Positions 1 through 11,103 of a stretch of DNA of 25,993 nucleotides are shown piece by piece. The stretch lies in UHGV virus genome UHGV-0145247; one strand, given 5' to 3'. The notes below the pieces were generated by a model that was not told the DNA's origin, did not search any database, and was given only the letters and a program-made list of their open reading frames with translations. Within the stretch, counting starts at the first letter, position 1; each line of letters starts with the position of its first letter. The DNA is from a virus. The position numbers were made by a program, and so were the translations under genes.

Positions 1-49
1 ACGAGATGCAGCGTAGTCTCGTGGGCTCGGAGATGTGTATAAGAGACAG
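1..49. other. Illumina Nextera library adapter (P7 tail ACGAGAT + 8-nt index GCAGCGTA + GTCTCGTGGGCTCGG + mosaic end AGATGTGTATAAGAGACAG); assembly artefact
   Basis: Exact match to the well-known Nextera read-2 transposase adapter and Tn5 mosaic end; genomic sequence starts at 50. Confidence 0.85.
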
Positions 50-54
50 GGTGA

Positions 55-876
55 TTACCTGTCCAACAGGTTCAGCATGTTCTCCGCCATCACCCAGAGC
101 GCACGGTTTAACTTAACGTCGCCATCAATTCCGTTAACTGGGCGGGTTTGGGTGCGTTTCCCCTGCGCGGTACGGCCACTTAGCCCGCCTTTCAGCAGGT
201 TTTCCTGGATGCGCTGGTAAGTGGTCCACAGGTCATCGCTCTCGTCCTGCCAGCGGCGAGGTGCAAGAATTTGCGATTCAGTCACTGGCTGGTACTCTTC
301 CCCAAAACGATATGTGAGCGCCGCTTTAGCCAGTGCATGTTGTGCGGGTGACGGGAGTTGCATGGACTGCATGGCGTCACGTTTCTCTTCCACCCGCTCA
401 AAGACGCTGAGAACCTCATAGGCCCCCTCAATCACCTTCCCGACAACGTCGCCCCTGTGTGGCACGCGGATCTCGCCAAACGACTGTCCGCAAACGAGCG
501 AATTGGTGCAGACGCTTCGGAATATCCCTGGCAGTAACTGAAAACTTGATGCGCCATCGTGCGAATTCAGAATGATGATTTCCGGTACCTGCTGACCGTT
601 TATCTGACCGGCACGACGCAGGCGCAGCATATGCTTTGTATGTTCCCGTCGGCTCTGGTCGCGCACTCGTGACTGACAGGCAAAGAATGGCTGGAACCCT
701 TCGCGTTTAAGGTTCTCCAGCAGGGTAATGGTGGGTATGTAGGTGTACTTTTCGCTTCTGGAGTCGTGCTTGTCTTCCCCGAAGACGCTGGGGACATGCT
801 GCATCAGTTCTTCGCGGGTTAAGGGACGGTCACGGCGAATCTGGTTCACCCGACCAAAACGGCTAGCTAATCGCAT
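55..876 (-). CDS. DUF932 family protein (YfjQ/YafZ-like), 273 aa
   Basis: Full ORF with RBS GAGGAA 7 nt upstream of ATG at 876; length and sequence resemble E. coli prophage YfjQ-type proteins (from memory). Confidence 0.75.
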   Translation of the reverse strand: MRLASRFGRVNQIRRDRPLTREELMQHVPSVFGEDKHDSRSEKYTYIPTITLLENLKREGFQPFFACQSRVRDQSRREHTKHMLRLRRAGQINGQQVPEIIILNSHDGASSFQLLPGIFRSVCTNSLVCGQSFGEIRVPHRGDVVGKVIEGAYEVLSVFERVEEKRDAMQSMQLPSPAQHALAKAALTYRFGEEYQPVTESQILAPRRWQDESDDLWTTYQRIQENLLKGGLSGRTAQGKRTQTRPVNGIDGDVKLNRALWVMAENMLNLLDR

Positions 877-910
877 AGTTGATTCCTCATCTGATTAATC
901 TGAAGGCATA

Positions 911-946
911 AAAGCAAAAGCCCCTGCTCCGTGAGGAGGCAGGGGC
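911..946 (-). terminator. Stem-loop (GCCCCTGC/GCAGGGGC, 8 bp) followed by TTTTGCTTTT on minus strand
   Basis: Inverted repeat 920-927 / 939-946 with T-tract on the minus strand, between small ORF and DUF932 gene. Confidence 0.4.
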
Positions 947-986
947 AGATATGTTGTTCACAGTGGGAGGGATATGGCGGACAGGA

Positions 987-1199
987 CTACAGCGTATCCA
1001 GAATCTTCAGTATCTGCGCCATCAGGGCGGTGATAAGTGCAGTGACCAGCAACGTGACCGCTTCCCGGGCTGTATCAATACTGCTGTCATCGTAGCCTGC
1101 CTGACGCAGGCGAATTTCAATAAACTGTCGGGCCTGATGTCCGCCGCACCAGGTCAGTGCCTGGCTCAGGGCCGTCACCAGCATTTTCAGAAAGGTCAT
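987..1199 (-). CDS. Small hypothetical protein (~70 aa), start uncertain
   Basis: Protein-like helical sequence from internal ATG at 1199; longer ORF-track start at 1301 would overlap the upstream gene. Confidence 0.4.
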   Translation of the reverse strand: MTFLKMLVTALSQALTWCGGHQARQFIEIRLRQAGYDDSSIDTAREAVTLLVTALITALMAQILKILDTL

Positions 1200-1279
1200 G
1201 GGGTTTGCTCCGGGCTGCCTGGCGGCAGCCCTCTGGTGGAGTGAAGATTTCTTTGAGGAAGCTGATACAGGAAAGTGGC

Positions 1280-1639
1280 TCAGTGGTAGGTGTAACGCCA
1301 TCCCCCCTTATCAGTGGTGACGACGACTTCTGAAGCAACGCAGTTATTATAAAAATTTACTTTGACGGACTCCCCGTAGCGCAAGGTGGCGGGCAGAATA
1401 GTTTCCTTATTGCTGGAATATAGGTACTTCTGGTTATCAATACGACAGTTACCCCGGTTCACATCTATCTTTTCAACTTTGATACTGTCATCCAGCGAGG
1501 TGACTACGACCGTGACATAGCGTGTTCCGGCAGGATGAACCTGATTACTGGTCTCCACTTTGATGGGCGGCGCTGGCTCTGCCAGCGCCTGTGCTGACAA
1601 TGCAAGCAGTGCGGATACCAGCATATATTTAAATTTCAT
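1280..1639 (-). CDS. Exported protein with N-terminal signal peptide (119 aa)
   Basis: N-terminus MKFKYMLVSALLALSAQALA is a classic Sec signal peptide. Confidence 0.6.
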   Translation of the reverse strand: MKFKYMLVSALLALSAQALAEPAPPIKVETSNQVHPAGTRYVTVVVTSLDDSIKVEKIDVNRGNCRIDNQKYLYSSNKETILPATLRYGESVKVNFYNNCVASEVVVTTDKGGWRYTYH

Positions 1640-1693
1640 AATCTGTTCCTTATAAAAATAATGTCATCAACAGCCGTTAAATTCAGATACAGG

Positions 1694-2158
1694 CTAGAGT
1701 GCATCTTTACCCACGCAGCCGTGTGTCCCGAATGCCGGTAGTACCTTAGCCGCACCGGCCAGCGTGAATGTGGCAGGCTTAACACCGTCTCCTGTCACTG
1801 AGACCTGTTTGCCATTACGTAACTGAGCCCAGGCCAGCGCCAGGTTATTACCGCCCACGCGACTGCCAGATTCGCTGATATCAATAAGTGCCCCACCATC
1901 GATACTGACCTGAAGGCTTTTATCTTCATCCATACTGACCTGATGTCCGCTTGCGTCAGTAAATATGATCGTGGCCGGTTGCGAGCCATAATCCTCGCAA
2001 CTCAGAGACAGTTGTGACTGACCTTTTCCTTTGATAACAAACTCTGATACACCCTGTCCCCAACCCCGGGTCCAGGTCCCCTGACTGCCAGATGCCAGCG
2101 CCATAACCGGCAGCAGACTGCCAGCCAATACCAGGATGCTGAGTGATACATTTTTCAA
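1694..2158 (-). CDS. Exported protein with N-terminal signal peptide (154 aa)
   Basis: N-terminus MKNVSLSILVLAGSLLPVMALA; Ser/Gly-rich mature part. Confidence 0.6.
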   Translation of the reverse strand: MKNVSLSILVLAGSLLPVMALASGSQGTWTRGWGQGVSEFVIKGKGQSQLSLSCEDYGSQPATIIFTDASGHQVSMDEDKSLQVSIDGGALIDISESGSRVGGNNLALAWAQLRNGKQVSVTGDGVKPATFTLAGAAKVLPAFGTHGCVGKDAL

Positions 2159-2211
2159 GACGAACTCCTTCTGTTAGTAAAACTGCGGTGCTGACGAATG
2201 AACATGCGGGT

Positions 2212-2889
2212 TCATTCCCGGATGAGCCTGCTGATGTAATGAAAATGCGGCAGGGCCTGAATAAATCGCGGGTCTTCAAAAATTCGCCGGATATGATTGT
2301 TTCTGGTGAAGCCCCCGATGGTCATAACCACATCGGTGATGGCTGAAAGGGTAAATACCTGAATCCGCTCGCCAGTTATTGCCGTCAGGTACCACTCGCC
2401 TTCCAGACAGATAAGCCGGTAAGGGGCAACGGCGGACTGATGGTGTCCGTGGTGCAGAAAATGAATACGGCGACTGCTGATGATGGCCTGGATAATGACC
2501 TGAAAACCGCCAAACAACGCCGGAGCCTGACGGGGTGGCGTATTCCAGATAATGCAGGGGGAGTCTTGGCCGCTGTCGAGCAAGACCGACAACAATTTAG
2601 GGTCAAGTGCCGGAAAGTAATGTGCCACCTGGGTTATCTGGGCAAAGCGGATAATGTCGCAGTTAGTGCGAAAGGGGCCCCGTGCATCCCGCAGGCGAAA
2701 ATTACCCCCGGAATATTCCGTGTCGATATAGCGCAGGCGTTCACGCAGGTCGCGCTGCACGGTACGCTCAGAGACGCCAAACTCCTGAGCAAGTTGCCTG
2801 ACACTGAGCGTTTCTCCCATAAAGAGGCGGCTGACCAGTATGGCGAGACGGCTTGCCAGGCGGTCATAGCGTTGTTTCTGTTCAGACAT
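2212..2889 (-). CDS. HTH + WYL-domain transcriptional regulator (YfjR-like), 226 aa
   Basis: N-terminal HTH (LSVRQLAQEFGVSERTVQRDL), literal WYL motif (GEWYLTAI) in C-terminal half; start taken at internal ATG 2889 (MSEQKQ), the ORF-track start at 3120 is an antisense extension. Confidence 0.7.
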   Translation of the reverse strand: MSEQKQRYDRLASRLAILVSRLFMGETLSVRQLAQEFGVSERTVQRDLRERLRYIDTEYSGGNFRLRDARGPFRTNCDIIRFAQITQVAHYFPALDPKLLSVLLDSGQDSPCIIWNTPPRQAPALFGGFQVIIQAIISSRRIHFLHHGHHQSAVAPYRLICLEGEWYLTAITGERIQVFTLSAITDVVMTIGGFTRNNHIRRIFEDPRFIQALPHFHYISRLIRE

Positions 2890-2948
2890 GAGGGATGCTT
2901 CCTGCGCAAATAGCAGCCCTGTCGGGCTGGTGGTTAAGTAAAAAGATG

Positions 2949-3677
2949 TTAACGGGAAAGGTGCTGCTGTCTCAGCCAGGACACGATGATGCATGCGGGT
3001 ATCGTGACCCGATAAGCCGGACCGGTGATGTCGGAAATCATCCACGCTGAACTCAGGGCGATGGCAAGAGGACCAGCCAGAACGGAAAGAGCACGTGAAG
3101 CGACCACAACAGTTCCCCAAGTGGCAATGCCGCCCAGGGAGGTGATGACACTAGCAGACAACATCGTTGCCAGCTCGAGCGCAGCCAGCGAGGAAGTCCG
3201 GATGGCGGCCTGAACGGCGATAAGAATGAGTTGTGGCGTGGGGTTTGTCAGATCCAGATGCATATTGTGGGAGAAAGCAGCCAGCTCTTCTGGTGACATC
3301 TGATCCAAGCTTTTTTCCAGAACCTTCATCAACAGAGCAAGCTCAATGGTTTCGGTAGTACTTTTCTGGTTGTAATTCACATCAAGCTTGTCACAGACAT
3401 CAACGAGAATTTCCCGATAGGTCACGCCTTGCCCCAGCCGGACCAGGCTCGCCAGGGTATTCGCGCCGTAACGCTGAAGCTCAGCGGCTATCAGTTGCCA
3501 GTAGCGGCGATGGTCTGGTGCCAGCAGACGAAACTCCGGGGTTCCGGTAAGACTCTCTGTCCAACGAGTGTCGCCGTCTCGTGGGTCAGTGGTCAGGATG
3601 GAAATCAGCAATTGCAGTTCTTCATTGCTGCATTGGCCCAGCAGATTCAAATCAGGGTCATTACGGTAGACAGCCAT
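2949..3677 (-). CDS. Hypothetical protein (242 aa) with hydrophobic Ala/Ser/Gly-rich C-terminal region
   Basis: ORF with RBS GAGGA 7 nt upstream of ATG 3677; first gene of the WYL-regulator cluster. Confidence 0.55.
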   Translation of the reverse strand: MAVYRNDPDLNLLGQCSNEELQLLISILTTDPRDGDTRWTESLTGTPEFRLLAPDHRRYWQLIAAELQRYGANTLASLVRLGQGVTYREILVDVCDKLDVNYNQKSTTETIELALLMKVLEKSLDQMSPEELAAFSHNMHLDLTNPTPQLILIAVQAAIRTSSLAALELATMLSASVITSLGGIATWGTVVVASRALSVLAGPLAIALSSAWMISDITGPAYRVTIPACIIVSWLRQQHLSR

Positions 3678-3691
3678 TATCTATCCTCAGT

Positions 3692-3714
3692 CAGTGTGAT
3701 GTGAGGTCACACTG
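3692..3714. promoter_or_regulatory. Perfect palindrome CAGTGTGA-N7-TCACACTG, candidate operator or 5'-UTR hairpin
   Basis: 8-bp perfect inverted repeat 15-37 nt upstream of the start codon at 3677. Confidence 0.35.
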
Positions 3715-4282
3715 TAAAAGGGGCTATTGCACGGATGTGTCGTCAGAAATGGTTAATATATGCTCTATGGAAAGATATACGGACAGGGTGTGGCTGGAAA
3801 AATAGGGGAGGAACCAAACAGCTATAACGATTTTTATCGTGCCTGAGTGTTATCAATATAACGATAATGGCTAGTGAGTTTGTTTTTTTTGCTGCTTTAG
3901 GGTGATTATATATTTCCCAAATATTAATGAGCTTACATTTGTTTCTTTTGCTGCGTGTTGTTTCGTAGTATTAGGTAATCGATGCCTTCCACTTTGATGG
4001 CTAACGACAATTTTAATTTTAGTACTATAGTTTATTTATGGAGAAGTGATTGAAGTATAAAAGAGAGGTCTTGCTGAGTAAGGCTTCAGGAAGGTATCCG
4101 TTTGGAACGTAATAGGAAAGGTGGCAAAGTGTATGATGATGCCACCTTTCTAATATGTTAAATCTGACCTCTTTGTGTTAACAATAGGCCGGTTTTGTCC
4201 ATTTTTCAGTTGAAAGAAAGCCGGATTTAGCTGACTTTAGCTGTCCCAGGTAAGGTGCCAGATGCTAGTACGCAACTTACCA

Positions 4283-5497
4283 TTAGAAGTGATGTGGTAT
4301 GATTAAAACCCCATGTTTGTCCAAAGGCGGCACTGTGAAAAATGAATTGTAAAATAAAATACATGACTCCTGATTGTGTAAGTCTATTTGGAAATAACGG
4401 GATACATACCGTTCCAGAATGTTTTGATAATAATCATGGTTTAATTTTTCTTTATTCCTAGCTCGTTCAATTATGTCTTCGTGCAGACTTGAAAATACCT
4501 CAATTAAGTCATCCTTATCCCCATTTAACATGGCATGAAAAGCAGCAGCAGCAAATAACTCATTTGCAGGACCTGCAGACAGCCAGTGACTGCTTTCAAT
4601 AGAATTAATGGACTCCCTCAAACGCCAGAGACCCAAGCGCATTGCCTGATCGTTTAAAAGTTTCAGTAATGGTGGATAAGCATAAATGTCCGTACCAAAC
4701 AGCCTGCGTGGTACACTCAGATCTGCAAAGGTCACATGTTTTACAGAGGCTAGCGCTTCCTGTATTTCATCCTGACCATATTGCATCGTGAGCGCCTTTA
4801 ATAACGTCGATTTTACAGGCAGGGGAGAACCTGCCGCTTTTATGCCGCTGAACGTTCCTCGGGTTTTGCTCACGGGAATAGTGTCCTTCATCATCCTGTT
4901 AATCAACGCAGGGGCAATAATGATGTTATCCGCTGTATTGGCCCCCCCTTTGGAATTCGGATATATGTGACATAACTCCAGCTCCAGCCAGGGTATCAGG
5001 CGTTTAATAACCTGCCCCTGTGAATCAATAACCCTTTGCCCATTTAGAGTATTGTAAGCTTTCTGGTAGTCTGCTTTGCGCTGGTACAACCGGATGAGAT
5101 CAGCAATGTCATCAGGGCTGGTGATACTTCCCAGCCCGAGGGGATTATTCTTTAGCTTGGACTCCACGTTGATCCAGTAAGAATGTTTTACCAGACTGAC
5201 AATGGCATCGTCATCTATGAGCCTTCTATCTTTATTACGATGCCCAATACAACAATACCGTTGATTGCGAGTACCAGACAGGCTAATACCACAGGGCGGG
5301 TACTGACACGTCAGATTCCACCTTTGCGCTCTTTTAGCTGCATTAGAAAGCTTACCCTGATAATGTACAGAACATAAGCGGAATTTACGCTCATCAGGTA
5401 ATTCACCAATTGAGAGCGTACAGTTATTTCTTTTACAAATAGCCATAATAAGACTCTTATCACAGTTAATCATGTTGCATGATAAATAAATAGCCAC
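4283..5497 (-). CDS. HNH nuclease-domain protein with Cys-rich N-terminus (404 aa)
   Basis: Cys pairs in first ~110 aa, then HNH-like motif ELELCHIYPNSKGGANTADNIIIAPALINR; AT-rich gene between AT-rich spacers; GTG start at 5497 without clear SD, alternative ATG at 5473. Confidence 0.6.
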   Translation of the reverse strand: MAIYLSCNMINCDKSLIMAICKRNNCTLSIGELPDERKFRLCSVHYQGKLSNAAKRAQRWNLTCQYPPCGISLSGTRNQRYCCIGHRNKDRRLIDDDAIVSLVKHSYWINVESKLKNNPLGLGSITSPDDIADLIRLYQRKADYQKAYNTLNGQRVIDSQGQVIKRLIPWLELELCHIYPNSKGGANTADNIIIAPALINRMMKDTIPVSKTRGTFSGIKAAGSPLPVKSTLLKALTMQYGQDEIQEALASVKHVTFADLSVPRRLFGTDIYAYPPLLKLLNDQAMRLGLWRLRESINSIESSHWLSAGPANELFAAAAFHAMLNGDKDDLIEVFSSLHEDIIERARNKEKLNHDYYQNILERYVSRYFQIDLHNQESCILFYNSFFTVPPLDKHGVLIIPHHF

Positions 5498-5664
5498 TCA
5501 TTAATCATGATCATAATTGATGGTATTTTTTAATATATCGTTAGTAATTAAGATGTTTATGTCTCAAATGAATCTGAAATATACTAGTGGTTTAATAATA
5601 AATTAATTGTTAGTGCTCTTTTTATCACGTGGCATTGCTAAGTGGGCAGCAGATAATGCTGCAT

Positions 5665-5898
5665 TTATGGTTGTTCGGCAATAGTAGTTGATGATGCCAG
5701 ATGACGTTTCAGCAACCACTCATCCAGTTCAGACTCAAGCCAGCCGACAGATTGCATGCCTAGGCGACGTTGTTTAGGGAATGTGGCGTCATATCGTGGT
5801 GACATGGGGTTAATCCAGTCGTAGATGGTAGAACGGGCTACGCCTATCTTGTTGACAACACTAGACATACGCAGGATTTTAATGTGTTGAGTGTTCAT
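5665..5898 (-). CDS. alpA: AlpA-family transcriptional regulator / excisionase-like protein (77 aa)
   Basis: Resembles E. coli AlpA (ATIYDWINPMSPRYDATFPKQRRLG...SVGWLESELDEWL). Confidence 0.8.
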   Translation of the reverse strand: MNTQHIKILRMSSVVNKIGVARSTIYDWINPMSPRYDATFPKQRRLGMQSVGWLESELDEWLLKRHLASSTTIAEQP

Positions 5899-6023
5899 AC
5901 CGATTTGTTCCTTGTTGGCCCTGTATGGATGGGGCTAACTTTACCGAGAGGGCAAAATGGGATCCAGATATGTACCAAAAGTAAAAAAAAACTGTGGAAT
6001 GTGACGTTTTAAGAGAGGTTGGG

Positions 6024-6740
6024 ATGACAGACGATAGTGTTCTGGATGGCATTTTTGATTCAGTAAAGAGCGAAGCTGAGCGTTTTATATCGTGCTACAG
6101 CGGTAGTGATGATGTCAGTAGTTACAATGAACTCCGTGACCGGTGCGAGAGTAAAGCAAAAGAAAAAATTAATAAATTCAAGGAGGAAGGCTGCCACATC
6201 CTGGATGATGATTTTGAATGCATGCTTTACGATGCTAATTTTTCTGCACAATGGAATGGAAAGTTTGGAACGTATCTTGCCATTGCATTCTTCTTTTACC
6301 ACTGGGGGCAGTATTGTTATTCCTCTGGGCACCGGCGTGAAGGATTGCTATTTATGGCAAGAGCAGCTGGTTGTGGTGGAGTCTGGCAGGGGGCTGGGCT
6401 ATACGCTGACCGTGTAGAGACTGCTGAATTGGCGTTAAAGAAAAAGCAAGATCATGGAAAGAAGGGAGGAGAGGCTACTGGCTTGGCTTTAGCACCCGCA
6501 CGGGATGAGTTGAAGCGGTTGCTTAAAATAAACTGCCCGGCAGAAGGATGGAAAACTAAAACTGCAGCAATCGGTGCCGTTGTAGATCAACTTGAGGTTT
6601 TTGTTAAAAAACACAAAATAAATTTGAAAACCGATAATCTTGATAATGCCATATTAACATGGTGTAAGAGATATGATGATTTACGAGACGTATTGGAGAG
6701 TTCTTTAAAAAAGAACATGAAAAATAACCGCGTGGGTTGA
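6024..6740 (+). CDS. Hypothetical protein (238 aa), AT-rich, between alpA and integrase
   Basis: RBS AGAGAGG before ATG at 6024; no recognised motif; opposite strand to flanking genes. Confidence 0.55.
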   Translation: MTDDSVLDGIFDSVKSEAERFISCYSGSDDVSSYNELRDRCESKAKEKINKFKEEGCHILDDDFECMLYDANFSAQWNGKFGTYLAIAFFFYHWGQYCYSSGHRREGLLFMARAAGCGGVWQGAGLYADRVETAELALKKKQDHGKKGGEATGLALAPARDELKRLLKINCPAEGWKTKTAAIGAVVDQLEVFVKKHKINLKTDNLDNAILTWCKRYDDLRDVLESSLKKNMKNNRVG

Positions 6741-6913
6741 TTTTACCCATATGGACATTGGGACGTTGGCATCGTGGTGAAGGAGTACATTAATTAGCCG
6801 AAATCGTGAAGTATCTGCCTATGTGCAATTCGCTTTTTAAGATGGAATCCACGCCGTCTTCATAGACGGCGGAACTTTAACTAAACTGCAACTAAACATT
6901 GTTGGTATCTTCC

Positions 6914-8155
6914 TCATCCAACGAGCCGCATTCCTTTTATCCCCTCCTCAATGATAGTTCCGCGATCTGCAGCCATCACGAAGTCAGCCCACCATTGCAT
7001 CATAGGTCGCCGCTGTTCCAGATAATCGCTGCGATTGTAAGCTCGTCGTACCTCATTTTTGTCCACATGAGCAAGTGCGGCTTCAATGACATCAGGTGGA
7101 AAACCTTGCTCATTGAGTGCTGTGCTGGCGATAGAACGCAGGCCGTGAGAAACGAGTACGCCTCCTAAGCCAGCACGCTTAAGTGCGGCATTAACTGTTT
7201 GGCTGTTCATTGGCTGGGTTGGTTTGATGCGACTGGGAAAGATAAACTCTCGGCCACCGCTGAGGGACTTCATCACTTCCAGAATTGAGATAGCCTCATC
7301 TGATAGTGGAACCGTATGGTCTCGGTTCATCTTCATTCGAGCTGCTGGAATTTTCCATTCGTTAGCATCAAAATCGATCTCATCCCATCGTGCCTCAGCG
7401 GCTTCGGCAGGGCGGGTAATGGTGAGAAGCTGCCACATGAACAAGCACCGCGTTGACATACTGATACTTGCCGTACGCATAGTCTGCATTAGCTGCGGAA
7501 GTTGATCCGGGCGGATGCTTGGCATGTTTTTCTTTTGCGGTTTCTCAAATGCTTTTCCGATATTTACACTGGGAACTGCATCAATCAGGCCTGTGTTCTG
7601 CGCATAAATCATGACTTCGTTAATACGCTGACAAAGGCGGCGAACAGTCTCTAATGCACCTCTGGCCTGAACCGGCTGAACAGCTTTAACTAGAGTATGA
7701 GCCTTAATCTCAGTGACACTAATATCACCGATTGCTGGGAAAACATCTCTCTCAAGCGAGCGCCAGATATCGTCGGCATAGTCCTCTGTTACGCTGGCTT
7801 TCTTCACATTCCACCAACGCTCGGCAACTAACAGGAAAGTGTTGGTTTTAGCCTCTTGAGAATTTCTTACCTGTTCTTTCTGATGTTCCTGAGGATCAAT
7901 GTCTTTCGCCAACAAAACTCGAGATTCAGCTCTGAGTTTACGCGCATCAGAAAGGGAGACAGCAGGGTAGGCACCGAAGCTCTGTTTGGTTCGCTGTTTT
8001 GTCAGCGGTCGATAGTAACGGAACTGCCAGAGCTTACTACCACTGGACTTGATTAATAGAGTAAGCCCGTCACCATCATACAGCTGGTAATCGGCATCTT
8101 TAGGTTTGGCGGCTTTGATTTCCGTATCGGTTAACGGCTTGGTTTTTCTTGCCAT
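6914..8155 (-). CDS. intA: Tyrosine recombinase, P4-type integrase (IntA-like, 413 aa)
   Basis: N-terminus MARKTKPLTDTEIKAAKPKDADYQLYDGDGL typical of P4-family integrases; RBS GGAG 8 nt upstream of ATG 8155. Confidence 0.9.
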   Translation of the reverse strand: MARKTKPLTDTEIKAAKPKDADYQLYDGDGLTLLIKSSGSKLWQFRYYRPLTKQRTKQSFGAYPAVSLSDARKLRAESRVLLAKDIDPQEHQKEQVRNSQEAKTNTFLLVAERWWNVKKASVTEDYADDIWRSLERDVFPAIGDISVTEIKAHTLVKAVQPVQARGALETVRRLCQRINEVMIYAQNTGLIDAVPSVNIGKAFEKPQKKNMPSIRPDQLPQLMQTMRTASISMSTRCLFMWQLLTITRPAEAAEARWDEIDFDANEWKIPAARMKMNRDHTVPLSDEAISILEVMKSLSGGREFIFPSRIKPTQPMNSQTVNAALKRAGLGGVLVSHGLRSIASTALNEQGFPPDVIEAALAHVDKNEVRRAYNRSDYLEQRRPMMQWWADFVMAADRGTIIEEGIKGMRLVG

Positions 8156-8165
8156 GGGGAATCTC

Positions 8166-8200
8166 CATGCGTTTAGGCCCAACGAAAACAATAGAGCTTT
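8166..8200. other. Perfect 13-bp stem hairpin (GGCCCAACGAAAA / TTTTCGTTGGGCC, 9-nt loop) just upstream of integrase start
   Basis: Inverted repeat read directly from sequence. Confidence 0.5.
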
Positions 8201-8276
8201 TCGTTGGGCCTATCAATGGGCCTAAAAGGTTCGGATTTAATTAGTTCTCTTCGGACTTCGCGGGACAAATTCAAGG

Positions 8277-8310
8277 CACAAAAAAGCCCGCAGGGCTTGC
8301 GCCGTGCGGG
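8277..8310 (-). terminator. Rho-independent terminator on minus strand, downstream of the ssrA 3' end
   Basis: GCCCGCA / TGCGGGC stem (8285-8291, 8304-8310) followed on minus strand by T6. Confidence 0.5.
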
Positions 8311-8358
8311 CTCTTAGGACTTCATCGGATGACTCTGGTAATCACCGATGGAGAATTT

Positions 8359-8394
8359 TGGTGGAGCTGGCGGGAGTTGAACCCGCGCCCGAAA
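8359..8394 (-). other. ssrA: 3'-terminal fragment of tmRNA gene ssrA (att core shared by the two elements)
   Basis: Minus strand reads ...CGGACGCGGGTTCAACTCCCGCCAGCTCCACCA, matching the 3' end of E. coli tmRNA with one mismatch; similarity stops after ~36 nt. Confidence 0.8.
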
Positions 8395-8451
8395 ATTTAT
8401 AACCTCATGATAAACAGTGATAAAAAAATTTAGCGTTTTGCTGCGGATCCT

Positions 8452-9642
8452 TTACGGCTCCTTTGAGGTTCCACCGCTGACCAGCTTGGGTCGTTTTTCA
8501 GTGTTGCCGTCATACTCCTTCAGATAGCGTCCATAATGCCTGAACAACATTTCTGGCCCTTTATGTCCCATCTGTGATGCCAGCCAGAACAGGTTAGCGC
8601 CTCGACTTATATGTCGGGTCGCGAACGTATGCCTGGTCTGGTATGGATTGCGGTACCTGATCCCAGCTTTACGTAAAGTTGGCACCCAGGCTTTCTTTCT
8701 TATCGCATCGGCACCCGCCCATGGTTTTTCTGTCTTAGGATCCTCAAAGATCGTTGCATCTTTCATAAAGGTGAAAGGCTTCTGAGAAGTCAGGGCATAC
8801 AAGGCTTCTTCGGTCAACTCAACTTTACGTGTTCCAGCTTTAGTTTTCGTGCCCTTAATTACCCCCACTACGCTGGCATTTTGCACATGCGCTGTTTTGC
8901 CGATAAAGTCGATATCGCGCCAACGGAGGGCGCAGAGTTCAGAACTACGTAGCCCGGTTTCAATTGCAAAGCGGAATATGTTTTCCCACTGCTTATTACC
9001 CGCAGCATGCAAAAGCGCTTCAACCTCGGCCGGTGAAAGCGGATCAACAATATAATCACTTTCATCCTCGGTTTTACTGCTCTGGTAGCGCGAGGCTGTC
9101 ACCAGTGAAACAGGGTTAATCTGCAATACACCATCAGTCACAGCTTCATCCAGTGCTGAGCGTAGGAATGAAAGTTGGTTCCTAATCGTCTTTAATGTCG
9201 TTTTCTGACTCTGGATCCATGTTTTTAAAGCAGCAGGTGTTAATTCGCTGGCAGGAAAAACGTGAAGTGATGCCAGAGCATTTAAACATTTCTTATATCC
9301 GCCGATTGTTGAAGGAGATAATTTTCTCGTTTCACAAATTACAAGATATTCATCGAGATAATTTTTTACCGTTTTTCCTGTTGAAGCATTACCAAATATT
9401 TTAAGTCGTGCCGAACGGGGAAAGTGTTCACCATAATTGAATGTACCACGCTCAATTTTATTGTGAATTTCGCCGAGTGTTCGCTCGGCGTATTTAAGGT
9501 TTTTGCTATTAACTTCAAGGTTTGATAAAGGTTCCCGGCATTTCACCCCCTTATAGGTAAAGGTAATATTGATAGTTTCCCCAGTACTATGTTTCCTGAT
9601 CGTTACGCCGCGCGGGAGTTTAGGCGATTTTGTCGAGCCCAT
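8452..9642 (-). CDS. int: Phage integrase, tyrosine recombinase (396 aa)
   Basis: C-terminal catalytic region (RHTFATRHISRGANLFWLASQMGHKGPEMLFRHYGRY); next to att core. Confidence 0.9.
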   Translation of the reverse strand: MGSTKSPKLPRGVTIRKHSTGETINITFTYKGVKCREPLSNLEVNSKNLKYAERTLGEIHNKIERGTFNYGEHFPRSARLKIFGNASTGKTVKNYLDEYLVICETRKLSPSTIGGYKKCLNALASLHVFPASELTPAALKTWIQSQKTTLKTIRNQLSFLRSALDEAVTDGVLQINPVSLVTASRYQSSKTEDESDYIVDPLSPAEVEALLHAAGNKQWENIFRFAIETGLRSSELCALRWRDIDFIGKTAHVQNASVVGVIKGTKTKAGTRKVELTEEALYALTSQKPFTFMKDATIFEDPKTEKPWAGADAIRKKAWVPTLRKAGIRYRNPYQTRHTFATRHISRGANLFWLASQMGHKGPEMLFRHYGRYLKEYDGNTEKRPKLVSGGTSKEP

Positions 9643-9821
9643 TTTGCAACCTCACTAAGATCTATCCATCTTTCCTTAACGCCTTCGACCTTTAGCACCT
9701 GTACCCCTTCACGCCATACGCCGCGTTGGATGCGCTTATTTATGGCATCAGGGGTTTCGCCTGTCTCTTTGCAATAAGTTGAGATGGGAACACAATCGAG
9801 GCTCAGCATAGATTTCTCCAT
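9603..9821 (-). CDS. xis: Excisionase-like protein (72 aa)
   Basis: Small basic ORF overlapping the int start, position typical for xis. Confidence 0.55.
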   Translation of the reverse strand: MEKSMLSLDCVPISTYCKETGETPDAINKRIQRGVWREGVQVLKVEGVKERWIDLSEVAKWARQNRLNSRAA

Positions 9822-9889
9822 TACCCCGGCTGCACCCGGGGGAAATTATTAAATAACTGCGCTTTTTGGCGCTGGTGGTGCGACCGCGC

Positions 9890-10060
9890 TCATAGCGGTG
9901 AATCATCCCCCAGCTTCGCCTTTAAATCGCCAGTGACAAACCAGGCTGGAATTTCTCCGGCATTATTAGAGGATCGCCCCTGCGGTGAGGTGAATGACCC
10001 ACGCACGGGAATTAGTTTGATGAGGCTGACACATCGGCCAATTTCTTCAATGGTGCGCAT
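9890..10060 (-). CDS. Small ORF (56 aa), translationally coupled to upstream gene
   Basis: ATG overlaps the stop of the 347-aa gene (TGATG), RBS GGAGG upstream; below ORF-track cutoff. Confidence 0.3.
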   Translation of the reverse strand: MRTIEEIGRCVSLIKLIPVRGSFTSPQGRSSNNAGEIPAWFVTGDLKAKLGDDSPL

Positions 10061-11103
10061 CACTTCACCTCCTGCGGGGCGGCTGCGAAGTGATTAATGG
10101 CCTTATCCCAGATTTCTTTGATGGTGGTCCAGTCAATCGGCATGGTGCTCGTCCAGGTTCCCTCGCCGCTGCAGTCGTCGCACCCTTCACCAAAACACTC
10201 ATGGCATGTCAGCGTATATTCAAGATTGAATTCCCCGAGAAGCGCTGCTTTTGCACCGTTCTCAGCGGTTAGCCTCATCGGCACCATCACGTACCCCTCT
10301 GGAATTACCGTGGAGTTGCTAGCATTTGGATGCAGAGCGCGAATCCCTTCGGCTAATTCTTCCAGGGTGGATGAATATCCGCGCTGGGCATCATTGCCGA
10401 ACTCGAACGCTCCGGTATCAGGATTAGACCATCCATGCTCGCTGTCGTATGCCTCACGCTGCTTATCTATCCATTTGGCGGCGGCTTCAATGCCATCGCG
10501 ATAGAAAGTGACTACTGGCGCTGGCTGCTCTTTGATGTGCAAGCGAGGTTCACCGTCTTTCGGCTCAGGCCATTCGCGCTGTTTGTTCACTGCCAGCTTT
10601 TCGATCATCGCCTGGGTAATCTGTTCGTCGGTGATACCGGCACGACGCTGGGCATCCCACATCAGGAATTGCATATCAGCCCACTCCGACAGGTCATCTG
10701 GTTCCGCTGCGGCCTCCATAGCCTCTTTTGCCAGATGCTTCAGTGGTCCAACAGGGCCGACATTACCGAATGTTGCCTGTGACCACTCTGAGTGCTCGCG
10801 GCGTACCTGCTCTCGGTCCTTTGCTGGTTGCGCTGGCGGATAATTTGCCAGCATCCAACTAATGACGTAGTCGTCCTTGAACCGCTCAACCGGAAATCCT
10901 TCATTCCAGTCACGGAAGTGATAGATAACTTTTGCCAGCTCAGGTTGAAGCGCCACCGGCTCGTTGTCCATTGCGGCCAGCGCCATGCGAGACAGCTCCT
11001 CAGCCTCTTCAGCTGGCAGCATTACGTTGCTTCCGGCACCGTAGGTTTCACGCCATGATTTAATTTTTTCCAGGCGCTCTCTGGTTATGGTCGATTTGGT
11101 CAT
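10060..11103 (-). CDS. Phage early protein with DUF550-like domain (Ead/Ea22-like), 347 aa
   Basis: Motif HLAKEAMEAAAEPDDLSEWADMQFLMWDAQRRAGITDEQI resembles the DUF550 family seen in lambdoid early regions (from memory). Confidence 0.5.
   Translation of the reverse strand: MTKSTITRERLEKIKSWRETYGAGSNVMLPAEEAEELSRMALAAMDNEPVALQPELAKVIYHFRDWNEGFPVERFKDDYVISWMLANYPPAQPAKDREQVRREHSEWSQATFGNVGPVGPLKHLAKEAMEAAAEPDDLSEWADMQFLMWDAQRRAGITDEQITQAMIEKLAVNKQREWPEPKDGEPRLHIKEQPAPVVTFYRDGIEAAAKWIDKQREAYDSEHGWSNPDTGAFEFGNDAQRGYSSTLEELAEGIRALHPNASNSTVIPEGYVMVPMRLTAENGAKAALLGEFNLEYTLTCHECFGEGCDDCSGEGTWTSTMPIDWTTIKEIWDKAINHFAAAPQEVK

Follow-up and report, generated by a model that had tools for sequence, protein, structure and literature searches.

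The DNA analysed here (the window) is a stretch of 25,993 nucleotides from virus genome UHGV-0145247. The subject of this work is an ORF located between alpA and the island integrase gene (int), divergent from the former and convergent with the latter. The features of the region are as follows, with positions given in the window:

5665–5898, minus strand: alpA (Phage_AlpA family; Pfam PF05930, E 1.1e-19; 63% identity to K-12 AlpA)
5899–6023, no strand assigned: divergent intergenic region of the ORF and alpA, 125 bp, presumed to hold both promoters
6015–6018, plus strand: Shine–Dalgarno sequence GAGG, 5 nt before ATG 6024 (sequence inspection)
6024–6740, plus strand: YfjH-family CDS, 238 aa (ORF listing, PHROG, BLASTP, family alignments, dN/dS, AlphaFold)
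6852–6871, no strand assigned: GC-rich hairpin with an 8-bp stem and a 4-nt loop (folding)
6879–6885, no strand assigned: cargo slot, empty here, and site of the recombination breakpoint at which the alpA/ORF module gives way to the int module (blastn breakpoint; site of the insert in related loci L001, L003 and L019)
6914–8155, minus strand: P4-type tyrosine integrase, convergent with the ORF (Pfam; BLASTP, 94% identity to K-12 IntA)
8359–8394, minus strand: ssrA (tmRNA) 3′-end fragment, the att remnant at the island end (alignment to K-12 ssrA)

Since the integrase is 94% identical to IntA and AlpA is 63% identical to AlpA of Escherichia coli K-12, the island is of the same type as K-12 CP4-57, i.e., ssrA-integrated. 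The ssrA fragment gives a partial match to the Rfam tmRNA model (38.5 bits, under the gathering score); a full tmRNA gene was sought within the window, and none was found.

The mechanical ORF call places the start of the gene at GTG 5994 (248 aa, ending at 6740), and public gene calls agree with this choice. We consider ATG 6024 to be the true start, because all close homologs begin with MTDDS and the first methionine is kept in 96% of the wider YfjH family described below. The resulting frame encodes 238 aa and includes its stop codon within the coordinates listed above. Its GC content is 42.5% (GC3 38.5%) versus 46.6% in alpA, 48.8% in int and 50.3% in the whole window. The AT-richness relative to alpA and int that had been pointed out in the first-pass annotation is thus present, and it is modest only. 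Comparison with the ortholog from Klebsiella aerogenes gave a dN/dS of 0.23, the same value as for alpA, showing that the ORF is under purifying selection. This value and the existence of a family of 102 clusters (see below) argue that the ORF is more than a chance open frame, and its earlier description as a genuine gene with a good ribosome-binding site holds.

The ORF had also been described as an orphan gene. This is contradicted by clear homology to a conserved island core protein, YfjH. In a PHROGs profile search, residues 34–205 of the ORF matched phrog_19089 with E 7.4e-9; E. coli K-12 YfjH (b2623) matches the same profile at E 1.4e-112. BLASTP aligned the ORF to K-12 YfjH directly (23% identity over 168 aa, E 2e-9), with the alignment taking in ORF residues 78–230 only. 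As judged from these alignments, the ORF is a real, diverged copy of E. coli yfjH, itself uncharacterised, and not an orphan; it adds a new, diverged member to a family that is known but has not been characterised. We hold the statements on identity and on YfjH family membership, together with those on synteny made below, with high confidence.

The motifs common to the ORF and YfjH are GKKGG, P..GWK.K..A, F, L and W, which in the C-terminal part of the ORF are arranged as GKKGG...P..GWK.K..A...F...L...W. Residues GG 148–149, L166, P172, G175–W176, A182, F193 and W213 are all present in the ORF and are conserved in 84–99% of 85 diverged members. An exhaustive HMMER search (cut-off E<=1e-3, clusters at 50% identity) retrieved 102 diverged clusters, mostly of 200–290 aa. 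Most of these matches rest mainly on the C-terminal 90 residues; profile matches to closer clusters cover residues 6–231, and the N-terminal half averages 14% pairwise identity family-wide. A word-indexed search returned just eight close relatives (at least 83% identity), the named ones being from K. aerogenes, Enterobacter kobei and Raoultella, and a single-protein scan of species-representative genomes returned one locus, from Kosakonia sacchari (L003). An IMG/VR contig (L019) is 99.6% identical to window positions 49–7136. No match was obtained when the locus was compared by megablast with complete E. coli genomes or when the ORF was compared by tblastn with phage and plasmid collections. 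The K-12 yfjH allele was found in 364 of 5426 E. coli genomes, in all cases at 99% identity or more.

Searches of Pfam, NCBIfam and PADLOC with the ORF gave no match, in agreement with the earlier remark that the protein has no recognisable motif. When Pfam (at both E<=0.01 and E<=1) and PADLOC were applied to all 88 family members, scattered single matches only, and nothing consistent, were retrieved. With PADLOC-DB 2.0, the ORF had no match and one member out of 88 weakly matched PDC-S05 (E 0.0029).

K-12 YfjH resembles the ORF in location and orientation: in CP4-57, it lies between intA and alpA, is divergent from alpA and is convergent with int. The C-terminal halves of the two proteins can be aligned, whereas the N-terminal halves are not alignable by BLAST, the identity is limited to 23% over 168 aa, and the K-12 protein is longer (318 aa by its annotation, about 291 aa if counted from Met28, compared to 238 aa). 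The annotated start of K-12 yfjH (L002, 3145–4101) is itself probably placed too far upstream, since the PHROG 19089 match begins at residue 28 and initiation at Met28 restores the usual yfjH–alpA spacer (about 124 bp, versus 43 bp as annotated).

The genomic context of nine further family representatives, with about 17–92% identity to the ORF, was analyzed. In all contigs long enough to judge, alpA is divergent and located within one gene of the family member. It is directly adjacent and divergent in L001, L004–L008, L015 and L016, as well as in the window and in K-12. In L009 and L010, alpA is divergent, with one small called gene in between in L009. The arrangement in L017 is a variant, where one gene separates the family member from alpA and the family member is co-oriented with int. 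The spacer to alpA is 117–132 bp in most related loci (127 bp in L015 and 132 bp in L016) and 204 bp in L007; K-12 falls within the 117–132 bp range only when translation of YfjH is taken to begin at Met28. In the intergenic sequences of six loci, related loci were seen to share an A-tract and a TTGGnCC-N5-TGGA element close to alpA, and DNA similarity of the window to L004 reaches position 5995. A promoter scan of 5899–6023 called no consensus σ70 promoter, and no operator-like repeats were demonstrated in this region. We conclude that the YfjH family is a conserved backbone gene of AlpA-controlled CP4-57-type islands that integrate at ssrA or tRNA genes. The idea that the ORF itself is inserted variable cargo had to be abandoned, since the divergent pairing with alpA persists in members with as little as about 20% identity.

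Comparison of the window with L001 by blastn revealed 89% DNA identity, unbroken from 49 to 6885, followed by only 80% in the int segment. The identity breakpoint sits just 3′ of the hairpin. The dS values calculated relative to K. aerogenes were 0.16 for the ORF, 0.10 for alpA and 2.6 for int. Since the ORF shares both the unbroken 89% identity and the low dS with alpA, it forms part of the alpA module. The island has a mosaic structure, and the recombination breakpoint coincides with the empty slot. We also note that the int protein is 94% identical to K-12 IntA, yet the identity between K-12 YfjH and the ORF product is no more than 23%.

The interval between the ORF and int is devoid of cargo in the window (173 bp) and in K-12 (243 bp). 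The same slot houses PD-Lambda-4 in L004, a type I RM system and a PtuA-like ATPase in L007, Gabija (GajA/GajB) in L008 and L016, and, in L001, L003 and L019, 1.3 kb of inserted DNA with 23-nt inverted repeats at its ends. Because the content varies on its int side, the YfjH-family gene forms the fixed inner edge of a slot for defence cargo and is not cargo itself; with the slot empty in the window, the ORF abuts int. The first-pass annotation had proposed that the int–alpA interval carries variable genes in related islands. This is correct for the part between the ORF and int only, and the view that the entire int–alpA spacer varies is corrected accordingly. The interval from the yfjH-like gene to int can thus be used as a practical landmark for mining defence cargo.

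Two of the slot contents deserve a description of their own. In L004, positions 7091–10942 (minus strand) encode a full-length PD-Lambda-4_A homolog of 1283 aa with an end-to-end PADLOC profile match, flanked by the yfjH-like gene and a UvrD-like helicase, which places this defence system in this island type. The 1.3-kb insert (L001, 10879–12173) lies exactly between the ORF hairpin and the int stop codon. Its inverted repeats are 91% complementary. No transposase is encoded, and the ORFs present are all small (64, 70 and 92 aa, the 70-aa one being zinc-ribbon-like). The insert could represent a non-autonomous mobile element or else a small cassette of cargo.

The hairpin, CGCCGTCT-TCAT-AGACGGCG, is located 112 nt after the ORF stop codon and 43 nt from the int stop codon. 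It had been noticed earlier at 6855–6874; the structure is real, and its position is 3 nt further to the left. The calculated folding energies are −15.1 kcal/mol for the plus strand and −17.6 kcal/mol for the minus strand (z-scores of −4.9 and −5.8, respectively), and none of 200 shuffled sequences folded as well. Since there is no T-tail, the terminator scan made no call. Both L001 and L003 keep the hairpin by means of register-shifting substitutions (CCGCCTTC-ATA-GAAGGCGG), and in these loci it stays beside the ORF, 1.3 kb away from int. We therefore rejected the possibility that it is primarily the int terminator, as it remains with the ORF despite the 1.3-kb insert. The hairpin is probably a T-tail-less terminator or a 3′-end stabiliser of the ORF transcript. 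It was also considered as a family-wide feature, and this was rejected because it is clear in close relatives only.

The structure of the ORF product was modelled by AlphaFold using 88 diverged sequences; an earlier model built from seven near-identical sequences (pLDDT 62) was discarded. The predicted protein is all-helical (pLDDT 92.2, pTM 0.74), with five helices up to about residue 135, one long helix spanning 104–155, then four shorter helices. Among 85 family members, pairwise identity is 14% in the N-terminal half, which is acidic (pI 5.1), and 28% in the basic C-terminal half (pI 9.7); the N-terminal half evolves fast. A structural-neighbour search with the confident model returned no informative fold neighbour, and a full-length profile had no significant match among PDB sequences.

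A profile of the C-terminal part produced two borderline matches in the PDB. One is 4FC9, the XL-box E3-ligase domain of Xanthomonas XopL (E 0.033). This match is ungapped over 52 residues and spans both invariant tryptophans and XopL K578; hhalign against a lone partial XopL sequence gave a probability of 19%, and 4FC9 was not among the structural neighbours listed for the ORF model. The other is the ribbon-helix-helix protein TraY (9F0X, E 0.032), which matches the helix-GW-helix segment. Both are unproven leads. The model speaks against a ribbon-helix-helix fold of the TraY/CopG/Arc kind, since it has the confident 104–155 helix (pLDDT 95–97 over residues 131–160) where a strand is expected. 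No HTH domain was detected in the ORF, none was consistent among the 88 members, and none appeared among the fold neighbours.

Several published observations concern K-12 yfjH. The RNA polymerase holoenzyme containing σS preferentially transcribes yfjH, together with the downstream region, in vitro (PMC3141248), and the gene is induced about 2-fold on acid shift (PMC2270276). In a genome-wide screen, overexpressed yfjH blocked RcaT, the toxin of retron-Sen2 (bioRxiv 10.1101/2020.06.22.160242; cited in PMC11951105). As late as 2024, the E. coli y-ome included YfjH among the uncharacterised genes (PMC11551758). Four papers on PICIs and tmRNA-associated islands (PMC11773190, PMC12595487, PMC13586616 and PMC5148205) contain nothing on the YfjH family.

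Our overall best explanation, to which we assign a probability of about one half, is that the ORF is a YfjH-family backbone gene with a regulatory or adaptor role. The more specific proposal that its product is a regulator or adaptor of the alpA–int excision/induction switch is tentative. The product would be a soluble, all-helical protein in two parts: the variable acidic N-terminal half, a helical hairpin, would recognise a partner and act as a sensor, and the conserved basic C-terminal half would bind nucleic acid or a conserved partner and act as an effector. A parallel may be drawn with Stl/Rpr. In Gram-positive PICIs, Stl/Rpr is transcribed divergently from the xis-replication operon, and accessory genes separate Stl/Rpr from int; whether a global repressor exists in Gram-negative PICIs has been described as unclear (PMC6092414). 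Like Stl/Rpr of SaPIs, the YfjH-family gene is divergent from the alpA side, has accessory genes toward int and combines a variable part with a conserved one. Unlike Stl/Rpr, the ORF product has no detectable HTH or other DNA-binding domain and no sequence or fold similarity to it, the repressor role is putative, and int points in the same direction as alpA, opposite to the YfjH-family gene. In its boldest form, which we offer as speculation, the YfjH family would be the missing master regulator of Gram-negative AlpA-type islands and PICI-like satellites, an all-helical sensor-repressor of a new fold. Its basic C-terminal domain would hold alpA and int off at the 125-bp region, its acidic N-terminal domain would receive the phage or stress signal that triggers excision, and the blocking of RcaT would be a by-product of the same binding surface.

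The regulatory reading has to be weighed against several facts given above, namely, the lack of a detected DNA-binding domain or a consistent Pfam match among 88 members, of a significant PDB sequence relative or informative fold neighbour, and of demonstrated operator-like repeats or a called promoter in the intergenic region. The L017 gene, being co-oriented with int and one gene off alpA, also fits it poorly. Moreover, the sole experimental phenotype in the family, RcaT blocking, fits an anti-defence function at least equally. The main rival, a possibility that we rank lower, is accordingly a counter-defence or toxin-neutralising factor that would bind immune effectors of the host or of competitors (RcaT, for example) and so shield the island or its helper phage, with N-terminal divergence reflecting an arms race. 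Recovery of K-12 yfjH as an RcaT blocker, the very fast divergence of the N-terminal half (14% pairwise identity), the narrow distribution of the K-12 allele and the proximity of a defence hotspot are all consistent with such a function. However, the blockers found in the RcaT screen are heterogeneous and perhaps indirect, the constant partner of the gene is alpA and not any particular defence system, and the part that is conserved is the basic C-terminal half rather than a target-specific surface.

That the ORF itself is a single-gene anti-phage or abortive-infection cargo, an idea close to the one implicit in the first-pass annotation, is unlikely. While the gene is AT-rich compared to its neighbours, is located in an interval known for defence genes and has no housekeeping homology, PADLOC is blank for it (with the one weak match among 88 members), the protein has no enzymatic or membrane domain, and tblastn found nothing in the phage and plasmid collections. 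In addition, the gene is co-inherited with alpA and is present whatever cargo adjoins it, even with the slot empty. Finally, we see hardly any chance that the frame is spurious, or decaying and functionless. Such a reading could draw on the lack of an annotated domain and on the fact that K-12 CP4-57 is a cryptic, decaying element, but it is effectively refuted by the evidence of selection (dN/dS equal to that of alpA) and by the family evidence: orthologs assigned to Klebsiella, Enterobacter and Raoultella, the Kosakonia copy and the copy in the IMG/VR contig (99% identity) all have an intact frame; the 102 family clusters share the conserved motifs; and family covariation yields a confident AlphaFold model. 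The good ribosome-binding site also speaks against it.

The gene itself is thus not exotic, being a diverged yfjH. Its family nevertheless offers a concrete candidate for the as yet missing regulator of Gram-negative AlpA-type islands. It merits attention because it has no Pfam, NCBIfam or PADLOC model and no informative solved fold neighbour, is tightly paired with alpA in ssrA/tRNA islands of a widespread class, and edges the slot that houses Gabija, PD-Lambda-4 or restriction genes.

Several other features of the window were noted. The product of 2949–3677 (minus strand) is a DUF3944 protein that matches PADLOC JukA (E 7e-64) and, under the model cutoff, NCBIfam MsyB (E 3e-28); a gene for a WYL-domain regulator adjoins it (2212–2889, minus strand). 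Since the trio of DUF3944, WYL and YfjT genes recurs in L001, L004 and L007, it looks like island backbone and not like a complete JukAB system. Downstream of alpA, where K-12 and several relatives have YfjI (DUF3987), the window encodes a 404-aa protein (4283–5497, minus strand). Only weak HNH-like matches were obtained for it (Pfam HNH_5, E 0.06; PHROG HNH endonuclease, E 0.02), and L008 has a homolog of its gene (about 68% DNA identity). This gene is flanked within the island by two AT-rich stretches, 3678–4282 (605 bp, GC 0.39) and 5498–5664 (167 bp, GC 0.28), which are overlapped by short ORFs of at most 74 aa only.

On the other side of the island integrase, the 36-nt copy of the ssrA 3′ end separates it from a second integrase of the Arm-DNA-bind_2 type (8452–9642, minus strand), which is accompanied by an excisionase, phrog_2917 (9603–9821, minus strand). 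The location of the ssrA copy between the two integrases indicates that a prophage and the island are integrated in tandem at ssrA. The same tandem arrangement of prophage and island is common to Kosakonia sacchari (L003) and the IMG/VR contig (L019).
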